From contig CAVVTC010000005.1 of assembly GCA_963751025.1 (NCBI GenBank), positions 312,304 to 376,303 on the forward strand: a stretch of 64,000 nt of DNA. The letters are read 5' to 3'. A model generated the notes under the pieces. It saw only the letters and a list, made by a program, of their open reading frames with translations. It had not been told where the DNA came from and searched no databases. This document shows positions 3,815 to 55,968 of this stretch, piece by piece. The stretch is from an uncultured Acidobacteriota bacterium. GTDB taxonomy: Bacteria; Acidobacteriota; Vicinamibacteria; Vicinamibacterales; UBA2999. The translations under genes and the position numbers were made by a program. The stretch's first letter is position 1. Each line of letters begins with the position of its first letter.

Positions 3815-3906
3815 CGACCCGATGGGTCCGCCCGGCGACGATTCGCCCGATCGAGACGCCGACGGCGACCGAGGGCACCCCCTCGCCCTCGCAGTCAACG
3901 GGGTTC

Positions 3907-4095: not shown

Positions 4096-4188
4096 CCGGT
4101 AGGCCGGTAGCCGTGCCGTAGCTAGGCTAGCGGGTGGCAGCGGGTTCGACGTTCTTGCTACCGGCTACCGGCTACCAGCTACCAGCTA
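4093..4188. repeat. Intergenic hairpin whose two arms are themselves ~7-bp tandem repeats. It exactly fills the spacer between two convergent stop codons.
   Basis: The left arm is tagccggtaggccggtagccgtgccgtagctaggctagc. The right arm is gctaccggctaccggctaccagctaccagcta, which is the reverse complement of the same unit. TAG 4093-4095 and the complement of cta 4186-4188 are the stop codons of the flanking genes. Confidence 0.8.
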
Positions 4189-5008: not shown

Positions 5009-5030
5009 CTATAATCCACAGAGATCGTCA

Positions 5031-5999: not shown

Positions 6000-6002
6000 A
6001 GG

Positions 6003-6063
6003 GGCGGCTGAAGCCGCCGCGAGACACGGCGCACGGCTGAAGCGTGTCCGGCTCTAGCCGGAC
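6003..6063. terminator. Three consecutive GGCT-NN-AGCC-type hairpins between convergent genes. They are REP-like and a probable bidirectional terminator.
   Basis: The hairpins are ggcggctgaagccgcc (6003-6018), cacggctgaagcgtg, and gtccggctctagccggac (6046-6063). The last stem recurs at 12879-12944. Confidence 0.65.
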
Positions 6064-7428
6064 CTAGAGAAGCTCCGAGAAGAACTCGTTCACCATTCGC
6101 CGATCGGGGTCAACGACCCTGAGCCAGTCTCCGAGCTTCTTCCACCGGTCGCCGTACGCCGCGACCACGTGTTCCTTCTTCACGAACGGGCTCTGATTGA
6201 GCAGCGGGACGCCGCCGCGCTGGTGCGCCCACTCATTGAACGCCTTCAGGAAGGTCGGCCAGGCCTCGCGGTCCTTGCTCGCTCGGCGCGTGAATCGGAT
6301 CGAGCGAGATGATGTCGCCGTCCCAGGTGTACGACAGCAGCGAGCTCCTGTCCTTCCGGATGAAGTACGAGCCGAGCGGCATGTTGCAGCGGAATCCTGT
6401 CTGCTTGTAGTAGTCCGTCGGCCCACTTCACGTAGTCCTTGCATGTTCTTCACGTAGTTCGCGCGCGGAAAGGCCCAGAACGTGAACGCGTAGCGAGCTG
6501 ACTGCGGCGTCTTCGAGTAGTTGATCGTCTTGTCCGGACCTTCCAGCGTGAAGCCGCCGCCTGCGCTCAGCAGACGATAGAACGCCAGCTCGACTCCCGT
6601 ATCCGAGCCGCTCCTTGACCTTGCCGATGCCGTGTGCCGCCCGAAGCGATCGCGCAATCCGCGTCCGGTGTAGGCGCCCAGGAAGTTCCACCCGAACTCC
6701 CGCGCGTCGGCCAGCCACTCGTGCTTCAGCTTCCTGGCCTTGTTGCGCGACTGAATCACGATGTCGTCGCCGATCGTCCACAGCACGATGCTCTGGTTCG
6801 ACGAGATCGCCTTCTTGATGGTCGAGTCCTTGAGATCCTCGACGTCGTGCACGTCGTAGTCGAAGCTGATGATCTCGAGCGGCTTGATCTTGAACGTGAC
6901 CTCGTAGACGATGCCGGCCAGGCCGTAGCTGGCTCTGATGTACGGAAGCAGCTCGGGATTCTTCGTCTCGGATGCTTCCATCAGCTCACCCGAGGGACTC
7001 ACCCACTTGATGGCGGTCACGTACGAATTGACCTGCCCGAGCTCGACGCCATCGAGGGCGTCCTTGGTCTGGCAGCACGCCGCTGAACCGAGCGTGATGT
7101 TGCCGATCTCGATGTTCAGCATGAACTGCAGATCTTTCTTGCGGAGCGCCGCGGCAGCGTCCACGAGCTGAAGACCCGCCTGCGCGGTGAACGTCTTCTT
7201 CGCGGCGTCGATCTTCACGATCTTCGTGAAGCCGTCCATGCTGACGACGGTGCCGGTGGACACGGCGCACGGCGTGAGCGAGTGATTGCTCCCCATGGCC
7301 CGAACCGGGCCGGGATACTTCTGTCGATCGCGGAGGATCTCCTGCAGCTCCGCGACGCTCTTCGGATGAACGTGCTGCTGCGGAGTCGAGGTGATTCCGC
7401 CATCGTAGTTGGTGATCGTTGTGCTCAC
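6064..7428 (-). CDS. FAD-linked (PCMH-type) oxidoreductase, sugar-lactone-oxidase-like, with several frame changes
   Basis: PKSVAELQEIL, VRAMGSNHS and GNITLGSAACCQTKD are seen. Between 6250 and 6440 the sensible protein hops through three frames (KDYVKWAD / DYYKQTGFRCNMPLGSYFIRKDRSSLLSYTWDGDIISLDPIH / RRASKDREAWPTFLKAFNEW). More changes are likely near 6560-6640. The GTG at 7428 is preceded by GGAG. Confidence 0.75.
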   Translation of the reverse strand: MSTTITNYDGGITSTPQQHVHPKSVAELQEILRDRQKYPGPVRAMGSNHSLTPCAVSTGTVVSMDGFTKIVKIDAAKKTFTAQAGLQLVDAAAALRKKDLQFMLNIEIGNITLGSAACCQTKDALDGVELGQVNSYVTAIKWVSPSGELMEASETKNPELLPYIRASYGLAGIVYEVTFKIKPLEIISFDYDVHDVEDLKDSTIKKAISSNQSIVLWTIGDDIVIQSRNKARKLKHEWLADAREFGWNFLGAYTGRGLRDRFGRHTASARSRSGSDTGVELAFYRLLSAGGGFTLEGPDKTINYSKTPQSARYAFTFWAFPRANYVKNMQGLREVGRRTTTSRQDSAATCRSARTSSGRTGARCCRTPGTATSSRSIRFTRRASKDREAWPTFLKAFNEWAHQRGGVPLLNQSPFVKKEHVVAAYGDRWKKLGDWLRVVDPDRRMVNEFFSELL

Positions 7429-7531
7429 GGTGTGCTCCGTACGAAGAGTAGAGGCCGCCTTCAGGCGGCCCATCGGATGTGGGGCGCCACATTCTGAATG
7501 AAGCTCGAGCGCGCGCCAAGCTCAGGCGTAG

Positions 7532-10252
7532 CTAATTGCGTGCAGCGAGCGGCCAGTTCATGAGGACGACGTAATCGCGCGCGGGCCGCAGGAAGCAGTT
7601 GACGATGAATCGCTTGCCGTCCAGCGTGTCGTACGGATGGCCCCAGAACTGGCCGTTCATGGGTGGAGACTGCGTCGCGCTTCCCGGACACGGACGGAAC
7701 AGCGCTTGCGCGCGAGGCACGGGACCCTCGAGACGGAGCGTGCTGGTCGCCACCGCGTGAATCGTCGCGTCCTCGGACATGAAGTACAGCTCCTGTCCGT
7801 CAGGACGCCACACCGGAAAGTCGCCTCCGGACTCGGAGATCTGAACTTTTCTCTGCACCGACAGCTCCGTTCGCGAACGGCCGGACAAAGACCTCGAATC
7901 GTCCGGTCTCCTCGGAGGTGTACGCCACCCATTTCCCATCTGGCGAGAATCGAGTCCCGCCGTGGCGCGACGGGTTGTCGAACAGACGCTTCGCCGTACG
8001 GTCACCCGACGAGACGATCAGCGTCCTGGTGGCGCTCTGATCCAACGGGTACTCATCAACGGTAATCCATCGTCCGTCACGCGACCAGTCTGTCGGCGAA
8101 CCGAAGGTCGTCAGCAACTGCGTCTCCTCAGCGGCGGCGTCGATGGCAGCCTTCATGTAGAGCATCGTTTCCGGCTTGCCGCCGCGATCCGAGCCGAACA
8201 GCATCTGTGTGCCGTCGCCAGACCACACCGGGTGCCAGTCGTTCGCGGTGTTTCGAGTGAGTGGCGCGGCGATGCCGCGGTCGATCTCTATCGTCCACAC
8301 ATCGCGATTGCCGTTCTTGGGGTCCGGATACGTGAAGGCGATGCGATCGCCCGCGGGGGACAGCCGTGGCTGCGTGACGTCGCCTGGGGGTCCCACGGTG
8401 CTCACGTGCTGGCCGCTTCGATCGAACCATGTGAGTTGCGTGCCTCCGGCTCCAGGCGGCCGCACGACAATCACACCCCCGAGCGCGGCCGCCTGAAAGG
8501 CGGCGCCGATGCCGGCCGAGTTGTAGTCCACGCCGGCAATCACCGGTTGTGGAGCGCCGAGTGCGTTGCGGTCGGCGTCGAAGGTGCGGGCTTCGAGACC
8601 GCCGTCGCGGTAGTAGAGCAAGGCGCCCGTGCCGCCGCGTCCGGCCGGAAGATAGAGCGCCTTCGATTGCGCGCTCATCACCCGCTGAAGATCCGGTGAG
8701 TCGAGCGATCCGAGATACAGCGTGTTGTTCGCCGCGACCGCGCAGCGCGACGTGAAGAGAAACCGGCGGCCATCGGGCAGGAACGTCGGCCCGCGATGCG
8801 AGTTCTCGCCGAGCGCCTCGTTCAACTGCGTGAGCGGTGCAGGCTCGCCACCGGATTCGGAAATGCGAAACAGCGGCTGACGGTTGCTCGGGCGGAAGAT
8901 GATGACGCCGCTCGAGCCCCACGATGCCTGCTGAAATCCGGGCAACGTGGCAATCGTCTGCGGCTGTCCGCCGTTGACAGGGACCTTCTTCAGTCGTCCG
9001 TCGGCGAAGAAGCCAAGCCACGCGCCATCGGGAGACCAGATTGGCGTTTGTGCGCCTTCGGTGCCAGGGATCGAGCGCGACTCCGACGAATCGATCGCGC
9101 GAATCCAGAGCGACGGCACGCCTTTGTCGTTGGTCCCGATGAAGACAAAGCGGCTGCCGTCGGGAGAAGGCTCTGGCACCGTGCTGATCGCGACGTCTGT
9201 CATCTGCCCCGCGAACGACAGCGTGAACTGCGCGGGAGTGGCAGCCGCGCTACCGCTCGCGCCGAGAAAACGCGCCAAGCCGGCTCCCGCGATCGCCGCC
9301 ACACCGATCGCGGCAGCCGCCCACAGCCAGACGCGCATGCCTTTTGGGGCGGCGGACACCGCGGCACTAGTGGAATCGGCCGTCACCGCTCCCGCGAGGA
9401 TCTCGTCGATCTGCAAGCGCGCATCGCCAACGTCGCGCAGACGCTGCCGGGGATCCTTGGCAAGGCAGCGCTTGACCAGACTCGACACGCCGGCAGGTGC
9501 AATGGCGCGCAGCGAATTCCACTCCGGATCGTGATCGAGGATCGCGGCGATGGTGTCGGAGATCGTCTGGCGGGCGAACGCGGGGCGGCCAGCGATCATC
9601 TCGTAGAGCAGGCAGCCGAACGCCCAGATGTCCGTGCGCTTGTCCAGTGACTGACCGCGCATCTGCTCGGGGCTCATGTAGGCCGGCGTGCCGACGACGA
9701 GTCCTTCCTGCGTCGCGAAGGCGGTCACGGTGGACGCGTCTGCGTCATCGGGTTCGAGCTCATCTCCGGCGACGGCCTTGGCCAACCCGAAGTCCAGCAC
9801 CTTCACCAGCCCCGACGATGTCACCTTGACGTTGGCGGGCTTCAGATCCCGATGGACGATGCCGCGCTCGTGCGCGGTGTCGAGCGCGTCGGCAATCTGC
9901 CGCGCCACGGCAAGCGCCTCGGGAACTGGCAGAGTCCCGCGCAGGAGGCGCTCCGCGATCGTCTCGCCGTCGACCAGCTCCATGACCAGGGCGTGGATGC
10001 CGTCGCCGTCCTCCACGCCGTGGATGGTGGCGATGTTCGGATGATTCAGTGACGCCAGCGATGCGCGCTTCGCGCTCGAAGCGCGCGCGCCGATTCGGGT
10101 TGGCAGTGAACGCGTGCGGCAGGATCTTGATCGCCACGTCGCGCTGCAGGCTGCGTGTCGCGTGCGCGATAGACCTCGCCCATACCACCTGCACCAACGC
10201 GCTCGTGCAGCTGGTAGACACCGAGGCGACGGCCGGTCAATTCAGCATTCAT
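7532..10252 (-). CDS. Ser/Thr protein kinase fused to a TM segment and a TolB-like beta-propeller, with at least 3 frame changes (about 10150, 10030, 7830)
   Basis: Kinase motifs are GAGGMGEVY, VAIKIL, HRDLKPANV, DFGLAK and GTPAYMSPEQ. A hydrophobic segment WLWAAAAIGVAAIAGAGL follows. Repeated SPDG / WSPDG / FSPDGKWVAY propeller blades then run to the C-terminus. Confidence 0.85.
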
Positions 10253-39594: not shown

Positions 39595-41298
39595 TTACCG
39601 AAAACACGGCAGGCCGGTCATGCGGTAATGCCCGGCCGCGGCGCGTCCCCGGAGCGTGAACACCTGAACCGGAGGTCCGGCTGGCGCCGGCAGGACGCCC
39701 GCGCGTTCGTACGACGCCATCACGTGATCGTGGATCAGCCGGAACTGCGGAACGAAGTGCGAGCTGTACGAGCGCTCGTCATCGAGCAGCACCACGGGAA
39801 CCGATTCGCGTCGCATCCGCGCGAGCGTGAGCTGCTGATCGCTCTCGAGCGTATAGAAGCCCGGGCGGAACGTCGGCTGGCCACCGGCGAACGAGCGCCC
39901 GGCGATCGCCAGAATCTCCGGCGCGTCGGCGACGACGAGCACACGGTCGGCGGGAGCCGTGCACAGACGCACGTACTCCGCGGCGTTCGGTTCCGGATCG
40001 GCTGGAGCGCCCGCGGGTGAAGACACAGGTGGAGGCAGCGCGCGAAGCTCCGTGGTCACGGCCGCGAGCCGCCGGCCGATCTTCTTGACGCTGTCGCCGA
40101 GTCCGGTCGTGTCGAGCTCGTGCCACACGCTGCCCGTGGTGGCGAGCGCCATCATCGTCGGCACCAGCACCAGCGCTGCGGTCGTCCACACCAGCCCACG
40201 CAGCCATGGCGCGCCATCCTGAAACCGTGACGGCAGCCAGGCCGCGAGGATGGCGAGGGGAGCGCCCAGATCGCCGAATCTGGCGCCGAAGTTGTTCCGC
40301 AGGAAGAAGCGATCGAGGATCAAGGCGAGCACGGCCAGGCTGGCGATCACGGCGCGGGTTTGCCGGGTGTCGAGATTCCTGGCGCGGGGTGCGCCGATGA
40401 GGACGAGCAGCGCCACGATCGGGATGGCGACACTGACGTCGTAGAGCCACGCCACCGCGTTGCCTTCCTCGGACAGAACCGACCAGATGCCGCCCGTCGA
40501 GGGCCCGAAGTGCGGCCAGCGGAACGTCGTGCGGTTGGCCTCCTGGGCGACGAGCGCGCGAGCCGTTTCGAGATAGGAGCCGATGCCGACGTAGTGCTGG
40601 ATCGAGTAGACAGGTAAGGCGAGCAGCAGCACGACCGTGCCCGCGTAGACCGCCAGCCGGTCGAACGCCTCGCGCCAGCGCGGCGTTCCCAGCAGCATCA
40701 GGATCGCGACCGGCGGTGCGAGATAGACCAGAAAGTCGTGGCGAAACAGGAACGCGACCGCGGACCACGCGCCGAGCTGCGCCGCACGCACGCGAGTCGG
40801 CTGCCGCACGTAGCGGAGGAACAGCGCCGCCGCGACGGCAAACACCAGTACTTTCGAATAGCCATACAGCTTGGTGGAGGCGAACAGCGTCGCGATCGTC
40901 GCGATCACCGCGGTCGCCCTGCCCGAGAGCTCGGTGGCGGTGCGAGCCGTGAGCGCGAGCGCGAATGCGAGCAGACCCACGGTGAAGACGGCTTCCGCGA
41001 AGAACGTCTCGCCGATCACGCGCTGCGCGAGCGCCGGCAGCTCGTAGGTCAGCGCCGGCCACGCGCCCATGACGCCGGCATCGGCGAAATCCCTGAGCGG
41101 ACGCTCGCCGTGCGCAACGGCCGACGCGCCCAGGGAGTAGATGAAGTGATCGCCGTCGAAGCCGCCGAGCGCGCCGCCGAGCGCGTTGAAGCGGTACAGG
41201 AAGGCCAACAGGAAAATGGCGATCGGTACGACCAGCGCGTGTCTGGCTGCGCGAGCAATCGCCTGACGGAACCCGGGCCGCCTCAAGGCGGCCCCCAC
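39595..41298 (-). CDS. P-family polytopic membrane protein, paralog P1 (567 aa, intact). Function unknown; proposed to be GT-C-like.
   Basis: Family motifs are YRFNALGG..GGFDGDHF, GERPLRDFAD, KLYGYSKV, AFLFRHDF, LRNNFGARFGD, CTAPADRVLVVADAPEI..RSFAGGQPTFRPGFY, and a terminal TGLPCFR. Confidence 0.7.
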   Translation of the reverse strand: MGAALRRPGFRQAIARAARHALVVPIAIFLLAFLYRFNALGGALGGFDGDHFIYSLGASAVAHGERPLRDFADAGVMGAWPALTYELPALAQRVIGETFFAEAVFTVGLLAFALALTARTATELSGRATAVIATIATLFASTKLYGYSKVLVFAVAAALFLRYVRQPTRVRAAQLGAWSAVAFLFRHDFLVYLAPPVAILMLLGTPRWREAFDRLAVYAGTVVLLLALPVYSIQHYVGIGSYLETARALVAQEANRTTFRWPHFGPSTGGIWSVLSEEGNAVAWLYDVSVAIPIVALLVLIGAPRARNLDTRQTRAVIASLAVLALILDRFFLRNNFGARFGDLGAPLAILAAWLPSRFQDGAPWLRGLVWTTAALVLVPTMMALATTGSVWHELDTTGLGDSVKKIGRRLAAVTTELRALPPPVSSPAGAPADPEPNAAEYVRLCTAPADRVLVVADAPEILAIAGRSFAGGQPTFRPGFYTLESDQQLTLARMRRESVPVVLLDDERSYSSHFVPQFRLIHDHVMASYERAGVLPAPAGPPVQVFTLRGRAAAGHYRMTGLPCFR

Positions 41299-41311: not shown

Positions 41312-41812
41312 TCACCACCAATCGCGGCGCGGATTCGGATCGGTACGCGCCACGGCTCGCGCGGCGCTCATGAGATTGTCGATCGATCCCGGACCGCACG
41401 CAGGCCCGGCCGCGGCGGCCATTTGCTGAATGCCAATGAGCGCCGCGGGGATCGCAGCGGCCCGGTCGTCGCCGATCACCGTGATACCGTAAAGATGCCG
41501 TGCCAACTGCGTGCGCTGCGATTCATCGAGCCAGGTGGTTCCACATGCGACGAGCGCTTCGGCGAGCGCGCGGCTCGCCTTCGCGTCGGGCGGGAACGGC
41601 CCGAACGAGCGCAGTCGTTCGTCGATGTCAACGGCAGTGGACGACGGCGATCCCAACCGCGCTGCAAGGTCGATGATCTTCGCCTCCTGTTCCGGCGATG
41701 GCGGCGGCTCAGCCGTGGGCCGCCAGAGGGCAAGCGCGAGCGCCGCGATGACGACCATCGGCAGTGCCTGCAGCCACCCCGCGTACGGGTTGTGATCCGA
41801 CGTTTCGTTCAT
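41312..41812 (-). CDS. Small N-terminally anchored hypothetical protein upstream of P1
   Basis: Intact, 166 aa. The TM is LQALPMVVIAALALALW. The soluble part is Ala/Leu-rich. I do not recognise a family. Confidence 0.45.
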   Translation of the reverse strand: MNETSDHNPYAGWLQALPMVVIAALALALWRPTAEPPPSPEQEAKIIDLAARLGSPSSTAVDIDERLRSFGPFPPDAKASRALAEALVACGTTWLDESQRTQLARHLYGITVIGDDRAAAIPAALIGIQQMAAAAGPACGPGSIDNLMSAARAVARTDPNPRRDWW

Positions 41813-43302
41813 CTCGCGTCGCGGCTCGCTCCCCGACTCGTCTGTGTCGCGTGCATACCCGTTCTGACCATTGTGCTCGTCCGCTGGCTCTTTGGTGTAT
41901 CGGTCTCAGCATTCCGTCCCGTACTCAGCGACGAGGTCTATTACTGGCACGAGGCGCTCACGTTTGCGCATGCCGGCCTTCGGGGCGGTTACTACACACT
42001 CGAAGAAGTCACCAATCCGTCCGGATTCACGCCGTTCGGCCCGCACGGCGCGGGCTTCGTCATGCTTTACGGTCTGTTCGGCAAAGTGTTCGAATGGCAC
42101 CGCCACAGCATCCTCGTGCTGAATCTCGTCGCTATCGGCGCGGCGGCCTGGGTGTGGACGGCCTGCGCGCGGCTGTCGAACGCCAAGCTGTGGATGTCGG
42201 CGCTCCTGCTCGGCACGTTCTGGCAGATGGTCTTCTGGGCCTCGACCGGCATGCAGGAGTCCCTTCACCATGCCGGCGCCATCGTCATGGCGGCGCTGTT
42301 TGCGAACGTGCTCGCGTCGCCGCCGCGAACCTGGATCACGGTGACCGGCGCCGCGACGCTGTGTCTATTGGCTTTCGTCCGGCCGACGTGGATCGTCATC
42401 ATGCCGCTGTGGGCGCTCATCACCAACCGATACGCCAGCCGCACGCGCACCATTGCAGCGGTGGCGGCGTCACTCGCCGCCGCCGCCGTGATGCTGATGA
42501 TCTTCAATCGCACCGTCGCTCCGTACTCCCGCGGCTTCTCGTTCGTCGAGGTCTTCAGCCTGTCTGTCGGCACACGGTCCGTCCTCGAGAACCTGCTGTT
42601 CAATCTGAACCGGACCGTCACCTTCTCGGAATACGACGACCTCGAGATCCTGCACCGCGTTCAGGTACCTGGGGCTTTCTCGTCGCCTCGCTGGCGCTTG
42701 CGGTTGCACTGTGGTGGCGTCGGCTGAACTGGCGCTCGGGGCCCCTCGCGCACCTGGCTGTCGCGACAACGGCGATGTTCACCATCCTCGGGCTGATGCT
42801 GGTGCTGTATTCGCTCACCAACTGGGCCGAGCACCGGGTGCTGTCGGCATTTCTTCTGTTCGGCGCCCTGCTGACGCTCGCCGCCCCGGGACGCGCCCCT
42901 CTCGTGCTGGTCGCGGCGCTGATCGTCTCGAACGTGGCCACCGCCGGTACGTTCGTCCGCGTCTTCGAGGCCAAGCGACAGGAGCAGTTCATCTGGGATC
43001 ATCGCGGCGTGAACGTGTTGCAGGAGACGCTGGAGGCAAACCGGGTGGTCTACCGCAAGGACCAGTCACGCTGGTGCAACACGTTGTTGACCGCACAGGA
43101 GCCACCACACTTGATCGCCGTGCCAGCCGGAATCGGCATCTCGGTCGTCCGCGAATCCGATCAGATGTCGATGCCGCCGCGTTCGCGCTACCTGCTCCTC
43201 GACGAGTCGGCGCTCGCACATTTCCAGCGGCCGGTACGCGTGCAGCCGCTGGCGACACTGCCGTACGGCACGCTCTATCTGAACCTCGAATCGGGCTGCG
43301 AT
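41792..43302 (+). CDS. Polytopic membrane protein with an N-terminal DE motif (GT-C/ArnT-like look), with a frame change near 42660-42700. The start is uncertain and the open frame runs on into the MITE.
   Basis: The first TM is ..VCVACIPVLTIVLVRWLF. Then SDEVYYWHEALTFAHAGL follows. Many hydrophobic segments come next. The soluble tail ..FIWDHRGVNVLQETLEANRVVYRKD..LLLDESALAHF.. has no stop until 43449, inside the repeat. Confidence 0.5.
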
Positions 43303-43449
43303 GAGTGGACCGTATCAACTGGAAGAGTACCGCTCACAACCAGCCTCGACCGCGGTTTCCCGGCCGCGACAACCCGTCCCGGGCGCACGCATGCGCGCTG
43401 GGGTGGGAGCGGAGCGGCCGGTAGTGAATCGGGAAGGACATACCACTAG
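43302..43449. mobile_element. MITE-like element, copy 1 (~148 bp), inverted relative to copy 2
   Basis: Its reverse complement, ctagtggtatgtccttcccgattc..ccggccgctccgctcccaccccagcgcgcatgcgtgcgc..gttgtgagcggtactcttccagttgatacggtccactca, matches 48217-48369 at roughly nine of ten positions by eye, with small indels. The terminal CTAG supplies the stop codon of P3. Confidence 0.85.
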
Positions 43450-45103
43450 TATCCGAAGCACGGGAGCCCATTCGGACCCGACGGCGTCCCAACCAGTCCA
43501 CGGCGAACCAGCACACGAAGCGAGCCTTCGGTGATCGAGACGCTGCCGACCTCGTCGTACCGCAGCGAAGTACTCGGCCAGCCCGAGTCGCGGGTCGTCG
43601 AGCAGTTCGCCGCCCAGAACAATGGGAACCGACTGCGAATCGAGCATGGCGATGGTTTCGCGCGCATAGCGGGGATCGGCGTAGTAGCCGACGACGAAGG
43701 TCACGCGCCCGCCGGCGAACAATCGATCCGAAAACGCCGGCACGTCGGGGTAATACCCGATCGCAATCACTCGATCGGTCGGCCGCGTACATCGATGCAG
43801 GTAGTCGGCGGCCTGTGCCCGATCGTTCCCCTGGCTCTGCCGGAGCGAATGCGGCATCTCAGCCAGATCTCGAGACGCCTGCTGGACACGGCGCACGACG
43901 TCGAAGGGCTCGAGCAGTCGCGCGGTCCGCAACTCTCCGCTCACGCTCCCCAGCTGCCAGATGCAGGCAACGGTCACCGCCAGGATCGCAACCGCGGGCG
44001 CGCCGGACGCCAGGACGCGTGGCCAGGGCCGGTGACCTGCCGTCGCCATCGACAACACGTACGCACCGAGCACTGCGACCAGTGGAGCCATGTCCCCGAA
44101 CCGCGCTCCGAGGTTGCCGCGAAGCAGGAAGTGCCAGGCCACCGCGCTCATCAGGCTCAAGGCGACGAGCGCGGCCGCGTGCGTGTCTTCTTCCGCGCCG
44201 CCACGCATGCGTCTCCGCAGCGTGATGACTGTGACCACAATGGGCACGCTCAGGAAGAGGTAGTAGATCCACGCCTCGCTGTTGTCTTCGTTGTCGAGCG
44301 TCGCGGACGGTGAACCCTCGAGCGCGACACGAGGCCAGCCGATCCGCGTGCGCTCGGTACTCGTTCGCGCTCATCTCGCGCGCGTTGCGCACGTACTCGG
44401 TCAGGCCGCGATAGTGCTGAATCCACCAGAACGACGGAGCCAGCAGGACCAATGTGATCACGCCGTACGCGGCGACTCGTCCGATCCGATCCCGCCACAC
44501 TGCGTTGCCTGACAGCGCGATCAACGCGAGAAACCCCACCGCGCAGTAGACCGCGTAGTCGTGCCTGAACAGAAACGCCACGGCCGTCCACGCGCTCATC
44601 AGCGCCACGCGCCGCCAGGTCGGCAATCCGCGGCAGCTGACAATGAGCAGCGCCGCCACCGCAGTGGTCAATACTTTCGGATAGCCATAGAGCTTGGGCG
44701 ACATCAGCGCGGACAGGAGCGCCATCGCCAGCGCCCACGGCCACCGCGCCACGACGCTGCCAGCCAGGAACGCCACCGCCGTGCCAAGCGCCATGCCTCC
44801 AACGGTGAGCCAGGCTTCCGAGCGCAGGTTGTCGCCGAAGTAGCGCTGTGCGGCCGCCGAGAACTCGTAGGTCAGCGACGGCCAGGCTCCGTGCATCGCA
44901 TCGTGGAAGTCGCGGAGCGGCTGCTCGCCCGCCTGGACCTGCTTGGCGAGCGCGAAGTAGAGGAAATGATCGTTATCGAATCCGCCGAACGCGCCGCCGA
45001 GCGTGTTGAACCGGTACAGAAACACCCAGCCGAACAGCAGGATCGCGACGACGCCGACGACGATCCGGCGCGAGAGCGGCTCAGAGGCGCGCTGATCGAG
45101 CAT
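43446..45103 (-). CDS. P-family polytopic membrane protein, paralog P3, with frame changes near 44330 and 43560
   Basis: Motifs are YRFNTLGGAFGGFDNDHF, GEQPLRDFHD, KLYGYPKV, AFLFRHDY, LRGNLGARFGD, CTRPTDRVIAIGYYPDV..RLFAGGRVTFVVGYY, and a terminal NGLPCFGY. Confidence 0.7.
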
Positions 45104-46029
45104 CGATCGAGACGGTCGGACCGGCCGCAGCCTCGATCACATATAGCGGCCGGCGCCGCGACTGGTCGAGTGATCGCCACACATACTCGCCAACCATGGC
45201 GATGGCGGACAGGACGACGCCGCAGCGCACCCGCGATCGCCCCGAGGAGAACGACGACCGCCGCCTGCAGGCTTTCGAACCACACCAGGCCGACGATCAC
45301 GGCGGCCAGACCGATCACCATCAACGCCGCGCCGGCGAGCCAGCAAGCCTTGATCGGGCGCGTCGGAGAACGCGGTGATCGAGTCGATGACCAGCTTGAT
45401 CTTCCTCGCGATGGTCCACCCCGAGCGGCCGGCGGCGCGAGGCAGCTTGTCGTACTCGATGTAGTCCTGGCGGAACCCGAGCCACGTAATCAGCGCAAAC
45501 ACGCTCACGTGCTGCTCGTCGCAGCGCCGGAACGCGTCAATCACCACGCGGTCCACGAGGAAGAAGTCGGCGCCGCGGGCCGGGATCTCCTTCATGCCGA
45601 CGATGTGTCGCATCACCCAGTAATAGAGCGCCGCAAACCCAGCGTGCGTCTGATCGCCCGGCCGTTCGCGCCGCGTCGCCCAGACGACCTGGGCGCCGGC
45701 GCGCCACTTCTGGAGCAGGGCGCCGAGCGTCTCCGGCGGATCCTGCAGATCCGACGCCATCATGACGGCCGCATCGCCGCGCACGTGATGCAGGCCGCAG
45801 GTAATGGCCACATGCGATCCGCGGTTCCGGGCGAGCCGGACGCCGCGCACGCGCGAGTCCACGACCGCCAGGCGCTGGATCACGGCGAAGGTGTCATCAC
45901 TCGAGTGGTCATCGACAATCAGCCACTCCCAGTCCTCCCCCAGCTGCGCCATCGTCTGCGTGAGGCGCGCGTGCAGGGCTTCGAGGTTGGTGGACTCGTT
46001 GAATGCCGGAGTGAGAATCGAGAAATCAT
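45081..46029 (-). CDS. ArnC/polyprenyl-phosphate-sugar-synthase-like family 2 glycosyltransferase with two C-terminal TM helices, with about 3 frame changes. One is in a T-run right after the ATG.
   Basis: ATG 46029 overlaps the upstream stop (ATGA). Motifs are SILTPAFNEST, WLIVDDHSSDDT, ARNRGSHVAI and MASDLQDPPE. The C-terminal TMs are AALMVIGLAAVIVGLVW and VLSAIAMVGEYVWR. Confidence 0.8.
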
Positions 46030-47189
46030 CGCGATACGGCCTGCTTCAGCGACGACGCGACCCGCTGCTGTTCCTCGTCGGTCATCTGGTGATAGAGCGG
46101 CAGTACGATCACCGTGTCTTGTGCCTGCTCGCCGCGGACCAGTGGTCCGGCCGAGCGCCATGAACCGGCCGGGTATGCCGGCTCGCGGTGGGCGTTCATC
46201 ACGCCGCGCCGCGTGGACACGCCCTCGTCCAGCATGCGCTGCATCACGCGACGCTGATCGAGCGGCGGCTCGAGACGAACGGTGTAGCTTTGCCAGTTCG
46301 TCCGCGCCCACGCGGGCTCGACCGCTGGGATCACACCGGGTGTGCCGCGCAACAGCTCTCCATATCCAGCCGCGAGCGCGCGGCGCCGCTCGACGATGGT
46401 CGAGAGGCGTGCGAGCTGTTCACGGCCGATCGCCGCCTGGATATCGGTCATCCGGTAGTTGAATGCCGGAACCGCGTATTCCTCGAACACGACCTGCGAC
46501 GAGGCGTGCCTGACGGTATCGGGGACCGTCATGCCGTGCTGGCGCAGAAGGCGGAACGTCGCATCCAGCTTCGGGCTGCGCGTGGTCAGCATGCCGCCGT
46601 CGCCGGTGGACAGCAGCTTGCGCGGATGGAACGAGAAGCACGCGATGTCCGCATGCGGGCGGCCGACTCGTTCCCATTGCCCTTCCCACAACAGCTCGCT
46701 GCCGATGGCGCAGGCCGCGTCTTCGATCACCGGCACACCGCGCCGCCGGGCAACCGCCAGGATCGGGGCCAGCTCGCACGGCATGCCGAGCTGGTGCACG
46801 ACGAGAATCGCCTTCGTGCGATCGGACATCGCCGGTTCGACGAGCGATGGATCGATGTTGAAGGTGTCGGAGGTGACGTCCACGAACACCGGCGTCGCAC
46901 TGCAGCAGCGGACGGCGTTCGCGGTGGCGATGAACGAATGACTGACCGTGATCACTTCGTCGCCGGGCCCGACGCCGACCGCCAGCAGGGCCAGATGCAG
47001 CGCGGTCGTGCAGCTCGAGACCGCGCAGGCGTGCGGCGCGCCGAGCGCGGCGGCGAACTCGCGCTCGAATGCGGCGACTTCCGGACCCTGCGTCACCCAT
47101 CCCGACAGGATCGCGCGGCGAGCGGCTTCGGCGTCGCGCTCGTCGAGCCAGGGTCGAGCCACAGGAATGAGCGCGGTCGTTCTGGTCAC
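46026..47189 (-). CDS. DegT/DnrJ/EryC1/StrS-family sugar aminotransferase (ArnB-like)
   Basis: Intact, 387 aa, with a GTG start overlapping the upstream stop. Motifs are ARPWLDERDAEAARRAILSGWVTQGPEV, SHSFIATANAV and FSFHPRKLL (PLP Lys). Confidence 0.9.
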   Translation of the reverse strand: MTRTTALIPVARPWLDERDAEAARRAILSGWVTQGPEVAAFEREFAAALGAPHACAVSSCTTALHLALLAVGVGPGDEVITVSHSFIATANAVRCCSATPVFVDVTSDTFNIDPSLVEPAMSDRTKAILVVHQLGMPCELAPILAVARRRGVPVIEDAACAIGSELLWEGQWERVGRPHADIACFSFHPRKLLSTGDGGMLTTRSPKLDATFRLLRQHGMTVPDTVRHASSQVVFEEYAVPAFNYRMTDIQAAIGREQLARLSTIVERRRALAAGYGELLRGTPGVIPAVEPAWARTNWQSYTVRLEPPLDQRRVMQRMLDEGVSTRRGVMNAHREPAYPAGSWRSAGPLVRGEQAQDTVIVLPLYHQMTDEEQQRVASSLKQAVSR

Positions 47190-48216
47190 ACGGTGTTGGA
47201 GGCGGGAATCCAGTTGCGGACGATCTCCTGCTCGAGGAGCTCCTCCGGCGTCTTGTGCTGATCGCGATACCAGTGCAGCAGCCGCTGCAAGCCTTCGGAC
47301 AGGGAGACCTTCGGCGCGAAGCCGAGGAGCGTACGCGCCCTGGTGACGTCGGCGATCAGCCGGTAGACGTCGCCGGGCCGCGGCTCATCGTGCTCGACGA
47401 CCGCGTCCGGCCTGCCGGTTTCAACCGCCACGAGTCGAGCGAGATCGTTGAATCGTCAGATCGACGCCGGTGCCGATGTTGATCGTCTCGCCCACCGCAT
47501 CCGGATGCTCACCGGCGAGCAGTATGCCGGCCGCGGTGTCGCTCACATAGGTGAAGTCACGGGACTGCGAGCCGTCGCCGAAGACCACCATCGGGCGCCC
47601 GGCCAGACAGCGGAGGAGGAACTTGGGAATCACTTCCCCGCTGTCGCCCTCGTGGTGCGATCGCGGACCGTAGGTGTTGAACGGACGCACGACGACGGTG
47701 GGATAGCCATAGGTGCGGAAATACGCACGGGCGTACGCACTCGCCGGCGAGCTTCGAACCACCGTAGACGGTGCAGGGAAAGGCCGGGTAATCCTCGCCG
47801 ATGCGTTCCCCCCGGATCGGCGTGGACTGCACGCCGCCGTACACCTCCGAGCTCGAGACGCAGACGAACCGCGGCACGTCGGCCTGCCGCGCGGCCGCGA
47901 GCAGCTGCAGCGTGGCAGTCGCGTTCACCTCGTGGTTTTCGTGAGGCGAGTGAACGGAATGGCGCACGCCGAGGCAGGCGAGGTGATACACGGCCCGCGT
48001 CTCGTGCAGATGCGGCGCGATCGCCCCCACGTCCCTGATATCCGTCACGAGCAGCGTCACGTGCCGCGACAGTACGTCGGCGACGTTCTCGCGCTTCCCG
48101 TTGACCAGATTGTCGACGATGACCACGCGCTCCCCGCGCGCGGCGAGCTGCCGTACCAGCTCGGAGCCGATGAACCCGGCGCCGCCCGTCACCACCACCG
48201 TCGATCGATCGGCCAT
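47186..48216 (-). CDS. NAD-dependent sugar epimerase/dehydratase, with 2 frame changes (about 47760 and 47430)
   Basis: Motifs are VVVTGGAGFIGSELV, VSSSEVYG, YGGSKLAGE, VVVRPFNTYGP and RDFTYVSD. The ATG at 48216 directly abuts MITE copy 2. Confidence 0.8.
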
Positions 48217-48369
48217 CTAGTGGTATGTCCTTCCCGATTCGTAACCGGCCGCTCCGCTCCCACCCCAGCGCGCATGCGTGCGCGCCGGGGACCCCGGGTT
48301 GTCGCGGCCGGGACATCGCGGTCGAGGCTTGTTGTGAGCGGTACTCTTCCAGTTGATACAGTCCACTAG
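48217..48369. mobile_element. MITE-like element, copy 2 (~153 bp) with CTAGTGG terminal inverted repeats. It fills the whole intergenic spacer.
   Basis: It starts ctagtggtatgtcc and ends gatacagtccactag. It contains an internal palindrome gcgcgcatgcgtgcgcgc. The left end touches ATG 48216. The right-end CTAG contains the stop of the upstream methyltransferase (complement of 48366-48368). Confidence 0.85.
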
Positions 48370-49136
48370 ACCCGCCGGGTGAGCACGAGGAACGCCACGC
48401 GGCTCACCGCTCCGAAGTCCTGCAGGTGCACCGCCAGTTGCGCAGCGGTGCGGTTGATCGGGGAATCATAGACCGGCGACTCCGGCGCCACGGCCATCGG
48501 GTGCACGATCCGCGAGACGAAGTCGTAGACGCCGAAGTGGCGTCGCGCCTCGACGGTGAAGAACCGATCGAGCCACGGCAGCAGCGTCGTCTCCTCGAAG
48601 TCCACGTTGTGCCACACCGCCGGCATCTCCGACAGTCCCATGCGCGTGCGCATCGCGTTCAAGGCGCGACGCCCGTCGGCCAGGCCCTCGACGAAAATGA
48701 ATCGCGAGCCGGGCGTGAGCAGACGGGCAATGTTCTCAATCGCGCGCTGCTGCAGCGCCCAGCTCTCGAGGTTGATCAGGCAGCGGATCGAGAGCGCGAC
48801 GTCGAACGTCCCGAGGGACGCGGGATCGAGGTCGAGCGCGTTGCCGACCTCGAAGCGCAGGCTCGGGTTGCCGGCAGCCGCGGTGCGGGCGCGGGCGATC
48901 ATCGATTCGCTGAAATCGACGCCAAGCGTCTCGCGGACGAGCGGCGCCAGGAGTCGCGTGGCGTACCCGGATCCGCACCCGACATCCACGACCCGATCGC
49001 TCGGCTCGAGAAACGGCTTGATGGTCTCGATCTCGAGCCACCGCTGCCAGACGTCGTTATGGGTCGCCTCGGCGTCGGTCAAAGATTGATCCTGGGCTCG
49101 TGTCTCCCAGAACTGCTTCACTCGCGAGTCGTGCAC
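48366..49136 (-). CDS. Class I SAM-dependent methyltransferase
   Basis: Intact, 256 aa. Motif I is VVDVGCGSGYAT, with later FDVALSIRCLINL. Confidence 0.8.
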   Translation of the reverse strand: MHDSRVKQFWETRAQDQSLTDAEATHNDVWQRWLEIETIKPFLEPSDRVVDVGCGSGYATRLLAPLVRETLGVDFSESMIARARTAAAGNPSLRFEVGNALDLDPASLGTFDVALSIRCLINLESWALQQRAIENIARLLTPGSRFIFVEGLADGRRALNAMRTRMGLSEMPAVWHNVDFEETTLLPWLDRFFTVEARRHFGVYDFVSRIVHPMAVAPESPVYDSPINRTAAQLAVHLQDFGAVSRVAFLVLTRRV

Positions 49137-51277: not shown

Positions 51278-52682
51278 CAGTCGATGTCGAACCACGCCGC
51301 CCAGCTCGATGGCGGCTGATAGGGCGTCGGATGATTCCACAGCGCGTCGCGCCTGAGCGCGTCGCGAAGCGCCGGACCATCTGCGCCACGAAGCGCGATG
51401 CGCTGTCGATCGAGCCAGGAGTCAACCGATACCCACGCCGCACGCTGCTCGGCCGCCGTCCAGCGCAGGTTGTAGTGATTGCCGGCGACACGGTAGGCCC
51501 ATCCGCAGGTCAGGACGGCGAAGAGCACCAGCGTCGGCACGATGCGCGCCGTCGCGGTGTTGCGAAACCATTCGCGCGAGGCGACGCTCACCGCGAGCCC
51601 GAAGAACACGCCGGCCGGACTCATGATGACGTTCTTCGTATAGGGAAAGCTGATCGCCGCGTTGGCAGCAAGGACGACGAGAAAGAGCGCGACCAGACGA
51701 TCGCCGTGATCGAAATTCCAGGTCCGAATCCGATCCCGACCGCGTCCACAGGAACCAGGTCACGAGTGCCGTTGCCGCGGTTGACGAGACGACCGACACG
51801 GCGCTCCACGGATGGATCGTCCCGGTCGTCAGCTCGTAGACGAAGCGCCACACGCCACCCTTCGGCTCCGCGAACAGCACCGTCGAAATCGAGCTCACGA
51901 CGTTGTAGGCGTAGAACGGCCAGGCCCGGCCCTCGAAACGCGCCGTCAGATCGGACGGCTCGAGAATACCGAACCCGAAGCCTGACGCGCGCTCCGCGAG
52001 CGTTGGAGTGCCGACGTCGAGGACGAATGCGCGGGCAACGAGATACGTCACCAGGCACGCGGTCATCGCCAGCACCGCTCGCCGCGAGACACCCCGGGCG
52101 CCGAGCGCATAGGCAGAAACACAGATCACCCAGACGAGGACCCCGGACTCGACGGTGAGCACCGATCCGACGAAGAGCGCGATGGCCAGAAGGTCCCAGT
52201 ACCAACGCGATCGTTCCCGAAGAGCCAGCGTCGCCACGGCGACACAGCACACCGCCATCGTGAGGAAGCCATTGATCGGGAAGGCCTCGCGAACCATCGG
52301 GACGAACGTGTGCGCACCGATCAGCACGGCGAGCGAGAGCGGCACGAGTGCCGCGTCGAGCGCGGTCCTCGGTCGCACCAGATGCACGAACAACACGATG
52401 AGCAGCAGGACCTGGGCGAAGTGAATGCCGCGGAACCAGAGAAAGTAGTGCCCGCCCGACAGCTCGTAGACGATCTTCAACTGGGCCCAGAGCAGCGGCC
52501 TGAGATACGCGCGTTGCGAGAACTGATCGCGAACCAGCTCGCCGAGCGTCGGCGTCTGCACCGCAAGCAGATTGCCGAAGCTGTCGCTGACCTGGATGAC
52601 GAGGCCGAACAGAAAGTAGCCGAGCACCGCCGCCACGAGCAGGGCGTAGGCATAGGCGAGCCGCGTCCACCTCCTGCGTCAC
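51274..52682 (-). CDS. Q-family polytopic membrane protein, paralog Q1, with frame changes near 52650 and 51620
   Basis: GGAGG lies 4 nt before GTG 52682. Motifs are YLRPLLWAQLKIVYELSGGHY, REAFPINGFL, TVESGVLVWV, PTLAERASGFGF, LEPSDL and FYAYNVVSSISTVLFAEPKGG. The tail is ..WNHPTPYQPPSSWAAWFDIDW. Confidence 0.6.
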
Positions 52683-54305
52683 GTCGCCTCCGTCGTACCG
52701 CGTGAAGCATGGCCAGCCGGTCGTCTGGTCGATGCGGCTCGGCGGCAGACCTGTATGCACGAGGATCCGGACGCTGCGCTCCTCATCAATCGGGATCTCG
52801 GCAAGCTGGCGAAACCGGCCGGCGACGAACGTGTCGAGCTCGGGGAGGTTTCGTTGCCAGTCGTCGTACTGGTCGGTCATCACCAGCGTGAACGCCACGA
52901 CCTGCTCCTGCACACGGGTGAGGAGACGTTGGCGATCGGCGTCCGACTGGTAATAGCCTTCGATGAAGCTGCTGTGCCCGGCGGCGAATGGCCGCTGCGC
53001 GTAGACGTAAATCTCCGGTGCGTTCCCGGTGACCAGCAGGCGATGACGCCCGGTCGTGCAGCGTTCGAGATAGTCGAAGAACGGAAAGAGCGGGATGAGG
53101 CGGCCGTCCGGGAGTTGCCGTCGCGAAAACCTGTCCGTCAGCTGGGCGGTCTTCTCTCTCAGCAGGCGCGGTACCTGACCGACACCGACCCACAGGTCGG
53201 TACGATGCAGCTGCTCGCCGGCCCGGCCAACCGCCGACACGGTGACCAGCCCTCCGACCCACATCACGGCGACGAGCGCCGTTGCTCCGACGCGGGCGAC
53301 GAGGGACCGCATGCGAAGCGCCTCGCCCGTCAGCCACGCGCCGACGAGCACGGCCGGCACGATGACATCAGGAAGCCGCGCCGCCAGCGGATCGCGAAGG
53401 AAGTTCCAGTTCACGAGCACCGCGCTCACGACGAGCGCCGCGGCGATCGGCACGTCGGTCGATCCGCGCCTGTACCCGAGCCACACGCACGCGGCCGCGA
53501 CGAAGGCCAGTACGTGCACACCGTAGTAGAGCCACGCCTGACTGCCGCGTTCGATCATGCCGAAGTGAAGTTGGGTGCGGTCGGCTTCACGACTGGAAAA
53601 CGTCAGCGACGAGACCGCGTACTGCCACAGCCCCTGGTGCGACTGGACGAACGCGAGATACGGCAGCAGCGCCAGCACGACGAGGCCACCGAACACGAAC
53701 AGCCGGACCAGCCGTGTGCGCCGATCCATCGGCGGCGTCAGCAGAATGGCCGCGACCGCCGCGGCACCGAGATAGAGGCCGTGGTCGTGGCGAAACAGGA
53801 ACGCCATCGCGACGAGGATCGCAGGCACGACGAGCCGTCGATGAGCGGGCGACCGCACCCACGCATAGATGGCGAGCGGCACGACCGCATAGAGCAGCGC
53901 CTTTGGATACCCGTAGGGTCGTGGAAAGGCGAGCATCGACACGATGCTCGCAATCACGCCGACCGCAACCGACCGCGACACCTGCCATCCGGCGATCGCC
54001 ACGCACGCGGCCGCCAGTCCGAAGGCCAGCGAGGTCATCAGCGCCTCGGCCAGCAGCGTGCGCCCGAGCACCAACTGCGCGCCGGCTGACATGGCGAACA
54101 TCAGGGGCTGGCCGGGATCGACGAAGTCTCTCGTCGGCAGTTCGCCCATGAGCATCTGCTGCGCGCCGGCCAGATACTGGTAGTGATCGTTCGACAGGCC
54201 GCTGAGCGACAGGTAGCGAATGAACGCGGTCGCCAGCAAGAGGCACACGGACGCGGCGACGATGGGCCACGTGATGCGCTGCCGCGTGTGATCGGGAGTC
54301 GTCAT
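52679..54305 (-). CDS. P-family polytopic membrane protein, paralog P5. The 3' end is inferred from the GTGA overlap at 52679-52682.
   Basis: Motifs are IRYLSLSGLSNDHY, GELPTRDFVD, RPYGYPKA, AFLFRHDH, LRDPLAARLPD, CTTGRHRLLVTGNAPEI..RPFAAGHSSFIEGYYQSDADRQ and TTGWPCF. Confidence 0.7.
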
Positions 54306-55968
54306 CACACTGCGCCGGCCGCGGTCGGCAGCGGCACGAAACACGGCCAACCCGTCGGAACGTCTATCGCTATGCGCGGGCGGGCCCGCTCGACGAGGAT
54401 GCGAACGCCCTTCAATCCGTCCACCGGGATGTCGGTCAGCACGTCGTACGCAGCGGTCAGGTGCGCCAGGATGTGCGGGAAGCTCCGGGCGAACGCATCC
54501 TGATCGTCGAGCGGCAGCACGACGAAGGGAACGGACTCGCGCTGTCATTCGTTCCAGGGTCAGCCGCTGATCGGCGTCGGAGTGATAGAAGCCTTCCGTG
54601 AACCCGATGTGCCCTCCCGCGAACCCGCGACGGGCGAGGACGAACACGTCGGCATACGGGCCGGAGACGAGCAGGCGATCCGTCGTGGCGGTACAGCGAT
54701 CCAGGTAGCGGAAGAACGGCAGCAGCCCGGCGGAGACGCGGCTGGGCAGCTTACGCGCGTCCATTTCGGGCCGCGTGAGCGCGTCGACAACGGCCGCGGT
54801 GTGCTGCTGCAGATGTTCGAGGTCGTCCTCGAACACACCGACCTCGTCCAGCTTGTCGTGCACGTCGCCGACACGCCAGATGGCGACTGTGGTCACCGCG
54901 AGCAGGACGATCGCCGCGAGACGAACCGGAATCACGATCGGGAGACGGCCTTTCATCGTCCACGCGAGGCCGAGCAGCCACGCGCCGAGCAGGCATGCCG
55001 GTACCGTGGCGTCAGCGAGACGCGTCTCGAGCGGGTTGCGAAGAAAGCTGGCGTCGAGGGCCAGGCCGATGAGTGCGATGGCACCGACGGCAACAGACTC
55101 GCCCGCCCATCCCTCACGTCGCGTGATTCGACGCCACACAGCGAGGAGCAGGCAGACACACGCCAGAGTCCAGAACAGGTAGTACAGCCACGCATGCACG
55201 TTCTCCCTGCGTCAAGCCAGCGGAGAGCTGCAGGTATGGAAGGTCGCGCAGGATCGAGATGTCGGCTTCCCGGCGCGACACGGCGATTCCCGTCTCGAAG
55301 TACGGAACCAGTCCCTGGTAGTACTGCACCCATGCGGCCCAGGGCGCCAGCACGACGGCGACAACGGCGGCAAAGATCGCCATCCGTCGCGCAGCCTCGG
55401 CGAGACCCGACGCGCTGAGCACGATCGCGACCGCACATGCCGCGCCGATGAAGAGACCGTGATCGTGGCGCATGAGGAACGCCACCGCCGTCAGGACCGC
55501 CGCGGTGATGACCCGCGCGCGTGAGGCATGCGCGGCGACGGCAACGATCGCGCAGCCGGCGAGCCCGTAGAACAGCATCTTCGGATAGCTGTAGCTGCGG
55601 GGCGAGGCGAGAATCTCGAGCAGGGTGACGCCGACGCCGACGATCGTCGAACGCGCCAGCCACGACGCGGCAACGGCAGTCGCCGCCGCGCCGATGCCAA
55701 CGCCCGTCGCCACCACGAGGAGCTCGGAGCCGGCGACGTCGCCGAACATCCATCGCGACAGGGCGGAGGGCACGTACATCAGCGGCGCACCGACATCGAC
55801 GAAGTCTCGAATCGGCCAGTCGCCGAGGAGCATCTGACGCGCCCGCGCGACATGAAAGTAGTGATCGTTGGGAAAGCCGTTGTAGGTGAGGAACTGCCAG
55901 AGGACGGCGAGCAGAAACATCGCGAGCGCCGCCGCCCAGATCCGGACGCTCGACTGGACTACTTCCAC
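54305..55968 (-). CDS. P-family polytopic membrane protein, paralog P4, with frame changes near 55150-55200 and 54530
   Basis: Motifs are WQFLTYNGFPNDHY, GDWPIRDFVD, RSYSYPKM, AFLMRHDH, LRNPLETRLAD, CTATTDRLLVSGPYADV..RGFAGGHIGFTEGFYHSDADQRLTLERM and PTGWPCFVPLP. The stop overlaps the P5 start (TGATG). Confidence 0.7.

Follow-up and report, generated by a model that had tools for sequence, protein, structure and literature searches.

The 64,000-nucleotide (nt) stretch of an uncultured Vicinamibacterales genome analysed here (hereafter the window) contains two inverted copies of a repeat of about 150 nt, which bracket genes for an epimerase, a DegT aminotransferase, a GT2 protein and a membrane protein, P3. 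Our analysis indicates that both copies very probably belong to a young, non-autonomous family of mobile elements of soil Vicinamibacterales (Acidobacteriota) that resembles MITEs (miniature transposable elements with inverted repeats). The family itself is new and apparently active; the kind of element is already known. The pair goes back to two insertions that occurred independently of each other in an old and conserved sugar operon. It neither mobilises nor defines the four-gene cassette, contrary to the suggestion in a preliminary description of the window made from its letters alone. Loci compared with the window are contigs or loci of metagenome-assembled genomes (MAGs), numbered L001 to L150. 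Among them are two ENA contigs, L012 and L013 (384 and 331 kb; the sisters), which encode the methyltransferase protein of the window unchanged and are collinear with it at 98-99% identity.

Two inverted copies in the window

Copy 1 is a long-form element at 43304-43449 on the plus strand, between the convergent stops of a plus-strand membrane-protein gene and P3 (site B; TGA/GTGG...CCAC/TAG, where slashes mark the element boundaries). Copy 2, also long, occupies 48217-48369 on the minus strand and fills, in the sense orientation, the spacer between a methyltransferase stop and the epimerase ATG (site A; CTA/GTGG...CCAC/TAG). A repeat search resolved two abutting pairs of inverted arms, 43304-43376 with 48295-48367 (73 nt, 95% identical) and 43378-43449 with 48217-48288 (72 nt, 93%). 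Pairwise alignment showed that the copies differ by one 5-nt indel and a few substitutions and that their longest common perfect stretch is about 39 nt, in agreement with the earlier report of two reverse-complement copies separated by few changes. The internal palindrome noted at that stage, GCGCGCATGCGTGCGC, is likewise present in both. The termini given for the element, CTAGTGG...CCACTAG, are those of copy 2, and the left end of copy 1 departs from them, as this copy reads TGAGTGG...CCACTAG and its left CTAG is not intact.

Copy 1 matches the element profile with E=8e-33. A 22-mer taken from the element has exactly two matches in the window, where shuffled sequence leads one to expect 0, and a profile search of the window at E<=10 returned no third copy. 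In copy 2, a family-wide 8-bp GC stem, CCGGCCGC/GCGGCCGG, encloses a hairpin module of about 42 nt (48257-48298, minus strand; CCCGGGGTCCCCGGCGCGCACGCATGCGCGCTGGGGTGGGAG) to form a central stem-loop at 48245-48311; the corresponding module of copy 1 (43373-43409, plus strand) is 5 nt shorter. Where copy 2 and its orthologues carry GGTTACGAAT, a site-specific TTAC variant, copy 1 has the family consensus GGTAGTGAAT, and copy 1 was therefore not copied from copy 2. An assembly duplication was ruled out as the origin of the pair, given that the copies differ and that copy 2 recurs in two independent assemblies.

A dispersed family with two size forms

Family copies were gathered by a 19-mer scan of JGI metagenome contigs, by profile searches and from Vicinamibacterales MAG loci. 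The 19-mer scan returned 11 loci, 10 of which hold true copies, each in a different locus. In all, 13 independent insertions were recognised at 12 sites in soil metagenomes and Vicinamibacterales MAGs (sites A to D, L001/L008, L002, L003, L004, L005, L010, L011 and L062), in addition to truncated copies in L002 (L002b) and L006. The element is thus not confined to the two positions in the window, a circumstance that would have spoken against mobility; its copies lie at many unrelated loci and are polymorphic among near-identical strains. They are 109-153 nt long and have no coding capacity. A core of about 110 nt is bounded by terminal inverted repeats (TIRs) of the form (CT)AGTGG...CCACT(AG), and its 5' half is strongly conserved (TCAACTGGAAGAGTACC...CACAAC). 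Read with the flanking bases, the TIR is (C)TAGTGG / CCACTA(G), 5-7 bp without a convincing extension, at the short end of the range for MITEs. The termini TAGTGGAC... and ...ATACCACTA are usable as ends in a search for a mobile partner. Size, dispersion, TIRs and the mobility described below all agree with those of MITEs.

Two forms exist, a short form of about 110 nt that accounts for most copies, and a long form of about 150 nt seen in the window copies and in L001. The long form consists of the short form with a GC hairpin of about 42 nt nested in the loop of the central stem. One and the same locus has the long form in one metagenome (L001) and the short form in another (L008). The module is present in the window (48257-48298) and in L001 (1911-1953) and missing from L013 (10768-10876) and L008. 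Two orthologous sites, independent of each other, thus vary in its presence; the boundaries are the same at both (GACAAC/...GGGAGC/GGAGCGG), and no flanking direct repeat exceeds 1 nt. Recurrent deletion of the palindrome, gene conversion and a nested mobile module are possible readings of this pattern. As an independent repeat, the hairpin module was not found outside the element.

Several copies have unusual arrangements. L003 carries two head-to-tail copies that share one TA. L002 carries two copies 3.4 kb apart (19-128, minus strand; 3522-3641, plus strand), which are inverted the opposite way to the window pair, with their 5' ends facing inward; in the second of these, a different and unrelated sequence takes the place of the loop, and the copy is truncated where the contig stops. 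The contig of L006 ends inside its truncated copy, just upstream of which an 11-nt direct repeat, CGCGGATTAGT, overlaps the first bases of the element (1045-1080). Diverged copies occur in the JGI contigs L143 and L144 and in the Vicinamibacterales MAG SMAG_U10141 (L062), where the element abuts a glucokinase ATG. Glucokinase relatives place the host in the Vicinamibacterales: the protein of the window shares 85% identity with its counterpart in MAG MFD02360.bin.2.183 and 74-76% with those of named Vicinamibacterales MAGs, L062 being one of these loci.

Searches of broader collections returned little. An exact 21-mer had no match in 185,579 species-representative genomes, and the L062 copy, the only one that came from a genome collection, differs inside that 21-mer. 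All 44 matches of a 16-mer in IMG/VR proved to be chance matches on profile rescoring, and blastn of the short form against the PLSDB plasmids gave only two marginal short matches (E about 0.9).

Insertion polymorphism among close relatives

Four sites could be compared in filled and empty states. Site A, between the methyltransferase stop and the epimerase ATG, is filled in the window and L012 by a long copy and in L013 by a short one, that is, in all three near-identical assemblies. The short copy of L013 carries the site-specific TTAC variant, which identifies it as orthologous to copy 2. The same site is empty in L138, L145 and L146 (methyltransferase 95% identical to that of the window), in L139 to L141 (90%) and in L142 (87%). 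Site B, which holds copy 1, is filled only in the window; in both sisters it is empty and two stop codons lie 1-5 nt apart. Site C, where the GT2 stop coincides with codon 8 of P3, is filled only in L013 and is empty in the window and L012. Site D, the L009 locus, carries a copy in L009 and L149 but none in L147 (from the sample of L012), L148 or L150. Presence and absence at orthologous positions is thus seen at 98-99% identity for sites B, C and D, and among relatives with 87-95% identical methyltransferases for site A.

Site A has been hit twice, in opposite orientations, by diverged members of the family. This follows from L143 (10768-10879) and L144, in which an approximately 80%-diverged member lies reversed at the site, beside a methyltransferase that is 86% identical. 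More generally, copies are found in both orientations relative to genes, also inside operons, which favours mobility as DNA over a strand-specific RNA. Together, the filled and empty sites, the double hit at site A and the occurrence of both orientations show that the element is recently mobile DNA and not a strand-specific RNA gene.

At site C, the extra short copy (L013:14005-14114) is placed at the GT2 stop codon, where the beginning of P3 overlaps the end of GT2. The P3 of this strain would be truncated after 7 native codons by a stop within the element, unless translation restarts downstream.

The four-gene cassette predates the copies

Two inverted copies around a coherent gene set could be the ends of a composite transposon, that is, of a unit that brought in, or can still move, the epimerase, DegT, GT2 and P3 genes. 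Copies of about 93-95% identity do flank 4.8 kb of functionally coherent genes here, and this is the picture behind the original proposal that the cassette was acquired or mobilised as a unit. We consider this extremely improbable. Both sisters, at 98-99% identity, have the whole cassette in place without copy 1, and the order methyltransferase-epimerase-DegT-GT2-P3 is kept, element-free and continuous with the upstream genes, in L139 (methyltransferase 90% identical) and L142 (87%). L143 has the same gene order with only the reversed copy at site A. The GC content is flat across the copy boundaries, with no step at either copy, and the diagnostic variants differ between copies 1 and 2. No gain or loss of copies and genes together was found. 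Given the element-free relatives, the sisters that lack copy 1 and the evidence that copy 1 was not made from copy 2, the pair is the result of independent insertions. It does not make up a composite transposon, and it does not indicate acquisition.

A second proposal was that recombination between the copies may invert the cassette, taking it off the operon promoter in the manner of a phase-variation switch. Perfect shared stretches of up to about 39 nt would in principle permit a rare RecA-dependent inversion. Such a switch is nevertheless very unlikely, as all six assemblies that bear on it (the window, L012, L013, L139, L142 and L143) show a collinear arrangement with the cassette in its ancestral orientation. 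Both copies are present in the window strain only, and so do not form a conserved switch, and no recombinase came up when the cassette open reading frames (ORFs) and those directly next to them (39.6-50.9 kb) were scanned with Pfam. The L002 pair is inverted the other way round, which fits random orientation, and two randomly oriented copies are expected to be inverted half the time.

Insertion at stop codons and the nature of the target

Oriented on the element, the flanks usually read YTA/GTGG...CCAC/TAR. In 9 of the 13 insertions the flanking TA and the terminal G of the element make up the stop codon of a long ORF with a high GC content at third codon positions (GC3), and in 2 more the stop of the gene lies just outside the flanking TA. 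Because TAG is read inward from either end, an insertion into a stop codon restores the stop whichever way the element lies. Stops are present in all six frames of the short form.

Both window copies supply stops in this way. The methyltransferase stop TAG (48366-48368, minus strand; ORF 48366-49136) is made of the flanking TA and the first G of copy 2, and the epimerase ATG (48214-48216) directly follows the other CTAG of this copy, so that copy 2 constitutes the whole spacer, as first described. In element-free relatives the methyltransferase ends GGC TGA and overlaps the epimerase ATG. A terminal CTAG of copy 1 had been named as the stop of P3, and we could confirm this for the right-hand one once two frameshifts in P3 were corrected: the TAG at 43446-43448 (minus strand) joins the flanking TA to the terminal G (complement of CCAC) of copy 1. 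The corrected last frame ends GLPCFGY before the stop, and the paralogue of P3 ends GLPCFR; in the sisters, P3 ends at this position with GGA TAA or GGG TGA. The plus-strand gene had been described as reading into copy 1 without a stop. This holds for the window, where its ORF continues for 48 codons through the copy, but not for either sister, where the gene ends GAC TGA; the window reads GA-TGA, and the read-through arises because this 1-nt deletion shifts the TGA at 43302-43304 out of frame. GC3 frames and the sister sequences identify this TGA as the in-frame stop of the gene. The deletion is either a sequencing error or a mutation.

A number of observations weigh against a conventional, TA-duplicating MITE. 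The TIR measures just 5-7 bp. Most loci have TA on both sides, yet a textbook TA duplication is seen in none of the four comparisons of filled and empty alleles. At site C, AGTGG...CCAC was inserted exactly after the T of TGA and without duplication (CTCTGAGAC becoming CTC TAGTGG..CCAC GAGAC). At site A, the empty relatives read GGCTGATGG and not GTCTAGATGG, and at sites B and D there are 1-3 extra nucleotides relative to the empty alleles. Four loci end CCAC/GA (CCAC/GAR) instead of CCAC/TA, and copy 1 begins TGA/GTGG. An autonomous element with the same ends was not found in about 2 Mb of loci: a partner search for TAGTGG...CCACTA pairs 0.6-3.5 kb apart with extended TIR similarity gave one weak chance pair. 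In addition, copy number per genome is an extrapolation, and several of the compared assemblies, whose long-read origin we infer, are rich in small indels, so that single-base junction details are not fully trustworthy. Divergence of the flanks and base-calling errors can explain part of the missing clean TA duplication. At site A, both independent filled alleles read GTC TAG...CTAG ATGG where empty relatives read GGC TGATGG; the difference goes back either to an allele that is a hotspot (TCTAGA) or to the insertion itself, as a side product. Duplications of 3 bp (TNA) or 4 bp (YTAR) were discarded as models, because they fit the flanks worse than TA.

These same junctions raise the alternative that the element is mobile but non-duplicative, through conservative or blunt insertion of AGTGG...CCAC(T) at T/R in sites that resemble stop codons, or through a hairpin-recognising mechanism like that of IS200/IS605 or IS110. 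The exact insertion at site C fits this account, as do the short copy of L013 at site A (T/AGTGG..CCACT/GATGG against the empty GGC T/GATGG; single-base detail CCACTGATGG), the CCAC/GA ends at four loci, the very short TIR with its single dominant hairpin, and the fact that all reconstructed targets are TAA, TAG or TGA triplets. On the other side, TA is found at both ends of most copies and a single TA serves both tandem copies, a conserved 4-5-nt target such as IS200/IS605 elements should have is missing from the left flank, the element has one hairpin and not separate left-end and right-end hairpins, and the junction bases come from indel-rich assemblies. We therefore regard a non-duplicative mechanism as unlikely, though worth bearing in mind. 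A bolder version, which we hold to be quite doubtful, would describe a stop-codon-seeking, duplication-free element that inserts at T/RR (TAA, TAG or TGA), restores a TAG with its own terminal AG whichever way it lies, is moved by a hypothetical enzyme, gains and loses its nested GC hairpin at high frequency, and in these ways adjusts translational coupling from strain to strain in the surface-glycan operons of uncultured Vicinamibacterales.

Folding and the possibility of a structured RNA

Folded as single-stranded RNA, the copies pair over their full length around a long hairpin in the centre. The sense strand of copy 2 has a predicted folding energy of -70.1 kcal/mol (z=-3.2) and its antisense strand gives z=-2.3; for copy 1 the values are z=-2.1 on the plus strand, which is the forward strand of the element, and z=-1.3 on the minus strand. 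RNA folding, which had been suggested as a check, thus yields a stable foldback with z between -1.3 and -3.2 across copies and strands. The central stem is kept in all copies. Its changes comprise one compensatory pair (C:G to U:A, in L062) and two wobble changes that are compatible with G-U pairing on the forward strand, which is too little variation for a covariation test.

These features would also be expected if the element were primarily a cis-acting structured RNA, serving as an operon spacer or in processing or stability, and were under functional selection instead of being selfish mobile DNA. Beyond the stable fold and the stem with its compatible changes, the strong conservation of the unpaired 5' half and the sense orientation of both window copies relative to the upstream gene are consistent with such a role. 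Against it stand the antisense copies within operons (L005, L009 and L143), the presence/absence and long/short polymorphism among near-identical strains, the copy that truncates P3 at codon 8 in L013, and the lack of any Rfam match; nor does the sequence variation suffice for a real covariation test of the stem. An RNA with a primary function in cis is accordingly improbable, and mobile DNA remains the preferred explanation of the family.

The covariance models of Rfam 15 gave no match at the gathering score anywhere in the window, and at E<=10 around copy 2 they gave noise and no family; the element therefore does not correspond to a curated RNA family. Integron attC sites and hammerhead or other ribozymes were rejected, as their motifs are absent both by eye and in Rfam. 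An in-frame mini-ORF of the MIRU type was rejected as well, the two terminal stops being out of frame with each other, and so was a site for integration host factor (IHF), judged by eye, as WATCAANNNNTTR fails at TTR. Scans for sigma-70 promoters and intrinsic terminators found nothing within the element.

Relation to known small mobile elements

Bacterial MITEs, as reviewed by Delihas, are shorter than 200 bp, have TA ends and TIRs of 4-24 bp, give foldback transcripts and lie between genes, where they may be co-transcribed (PMC2229807). The MITE-like nature claimed for the repeat at the outset is borne out by a short, non-coding, multi-copy foldback element with TA-containing ends that does supply stop codons. 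Among known families, the Correia elements (NEMIS) of Neisseria are similar in being non-coding, in having TA at both ends, in their foldback transcripts and in their frequent co-transcription between genes. They also come in two size classes, of 107 and 155 bp, which differ by an internal segment of about 50 bp (PMC2229807), compared with about 110 and 150 nt here. Unlike our element, they have TIRs of about 24-26 bp (5-7 bp here) and belong to another phylum; no sequence homology was shown, the element has no IHF-site match, and the additional segment of its long form is a GC hairpin that lies within the central stem. The Correia terminus, TATAGTGGATT, would presumably have TAGTGGA in common with the element.

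RUP of pneumococcus and other IS630-linked MITEs resemble the element in length (about 107 bp), in a short TIR (9 bp in RUP), in a TA target, in six-frame stops and in a high copy-to-copy identity that suggests recent mobility (PMC2229807). They differ in that the TIRs of RUP match a known IS630-family element, whereas none was found here in about 2 Mb, and in that the four filled/empty comparisons of our element show no clean TA duplication. The enterobacterial ERIC/IRU and YPAL elements are imperfect palindromes of about 70-130 bp with TIRs of about 7 bp and TA ends, found in transcribed intergenic regions in either orientation (PMC2229807). They have no sequence relationship to the present element, which lies exactly on stop codons and shows strain-level insertion polymorphism.

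REP/REPIN sequences, which are associated with RAYT (IS200/IS605-like) transposases, share a GC-rich hairpin, a location between or 3' of genes, and a target duplication that is not obligatory. According to PMC3733652, however, REPs are 20-40 bp long, carry a GTAG or CGTC tag and usually form clustered inverted doublets. Copies of the present element are mostly solitary and 110-150 nt long, with one hairpin, a long conserved unpaired arm and TIRs, and do not belong in this class.

A model for the two insertions and its implications

The order of events may be reconstructed as follows. Copy 2, found in all three near-identical assemblies, would have entered first, and copy 1, present in the window only, would have followed later and independently, probably from another long-form copy elsewhere in the genome. 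The element would be moved in trans by a transposase, most simply a TA-targeting, TA-duplicating enzyme of the IS630/Tc1 type. In a gene-dense genome of 67% GC, purifying selection may then leave only the copies at stop codons and gene boundaries. Where it is transcribed within operons, the element is predicted to fold into a stable hairpin, and it may alter coupling or mRNA stability as a side effect.

These data document a miniature transposable element, apparently active, in the Vicinamibacterales, soil Acidobacteria that are abundant but have hardly been cultured. Its insertion differences among co-occurring strains fall within a cell-surface sugar operon, where in one allele 110-150 nt of hairpin now lie between a stop and a start that used to overlap, and in another P3 is truncated. 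Elements of this sort are of use as strain markers; they also give rise to assembly and annotation errors (fused or extended ORFs), and possibly to variation in expression. That a neat set of genes lies between inverted repeats is, by itself, no evidence for a mobile or invertible cassette.

Genes around the copies and sequence quality

Pfam supports the identities first given to four of the genes: the S-adenosylmethionine (SAM) methyltransferase (48366-49136, minus strand; intact), the NAD-epimerase/dehydratase (starting at 48216, minus strand), the DegT aminotransferase (46026-47189) and GT2 (about 45.1-46.0 kb). GT2 resembles PgfS/ArnC-type polyprenyl-phosphate sugar transferases, at scores below the curated cut-offs. 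P3 (about 43.4-45.1 kb, minus strand), which is paralogous to 39595-41298, had no sequence match in Pfam, NCBIfam or PDB, and the transferase role earlier assigned to it is a guess. Exact-protein look-ups of the GDP-mannose dehydratase and the glucokinase of the window returned no record.

A three-way alignment with the two sisters revealed window-specific indels of 1-2 nt at 49268, 47738, 47449, 46020, 45452, 45355, 45079, 44357 and 43566, and third-position GC frame plots showed frame changes in the plus-strand gene as well as in the epimerase, GT2 and P3. Gene calls in L012 give full-length versions of the epimerase, DegT and P3. Given these full-length genes and the restriction of the indels to the window, we read the frameshifts of the window as probable assembly errors of a long-read metagenome, and pseudogenes are not favoured. 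Three of the nine indels lie in a CGAGTAC-like context, and GAGTAC is also found in the element core; indels in this context could be systematic long-read base-calling errors at a methylated motif. Further frame breaks are possible, to judge by appearance only, where same-strand high-GC3 ORFs overlap, for example at 13.7-15.5, 25.0-27.0, 28.0-30.0, 37.4-39.5 and 61.4-63.6 kb.

A strain-variable insertion of about 300 nt lies between two paralogues of the DUF1552 (HXXSHH) family (L149:9697-10001 and L150:9706-10001, against L148:9994-10001); it does not match the element profile. In the window, a 1192-aa ORF at 51621-55199 (minus strand) had no Pfam match at E<=1e-4. The cluster also encodes large multi-pass membrane proteins of about 480-630 aa, at 39595-41298 (minus strand), 43446-45103 (P3, minus strand) and 41423-43304 (plus strand), and among the L012 genes at 1524-9752; these had no match in Pfam, NCBIfam or PDB. 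P3 and its paralogue share an N-terminal motif, FLYRFN.LGG..GGFD.DHF, and a C-terminal one, GLPCF followed within a few residues by the stop, and proteins of this type may represent an uncharacterised family of glycan polymerases, ligases or GT-C-like enzymes.

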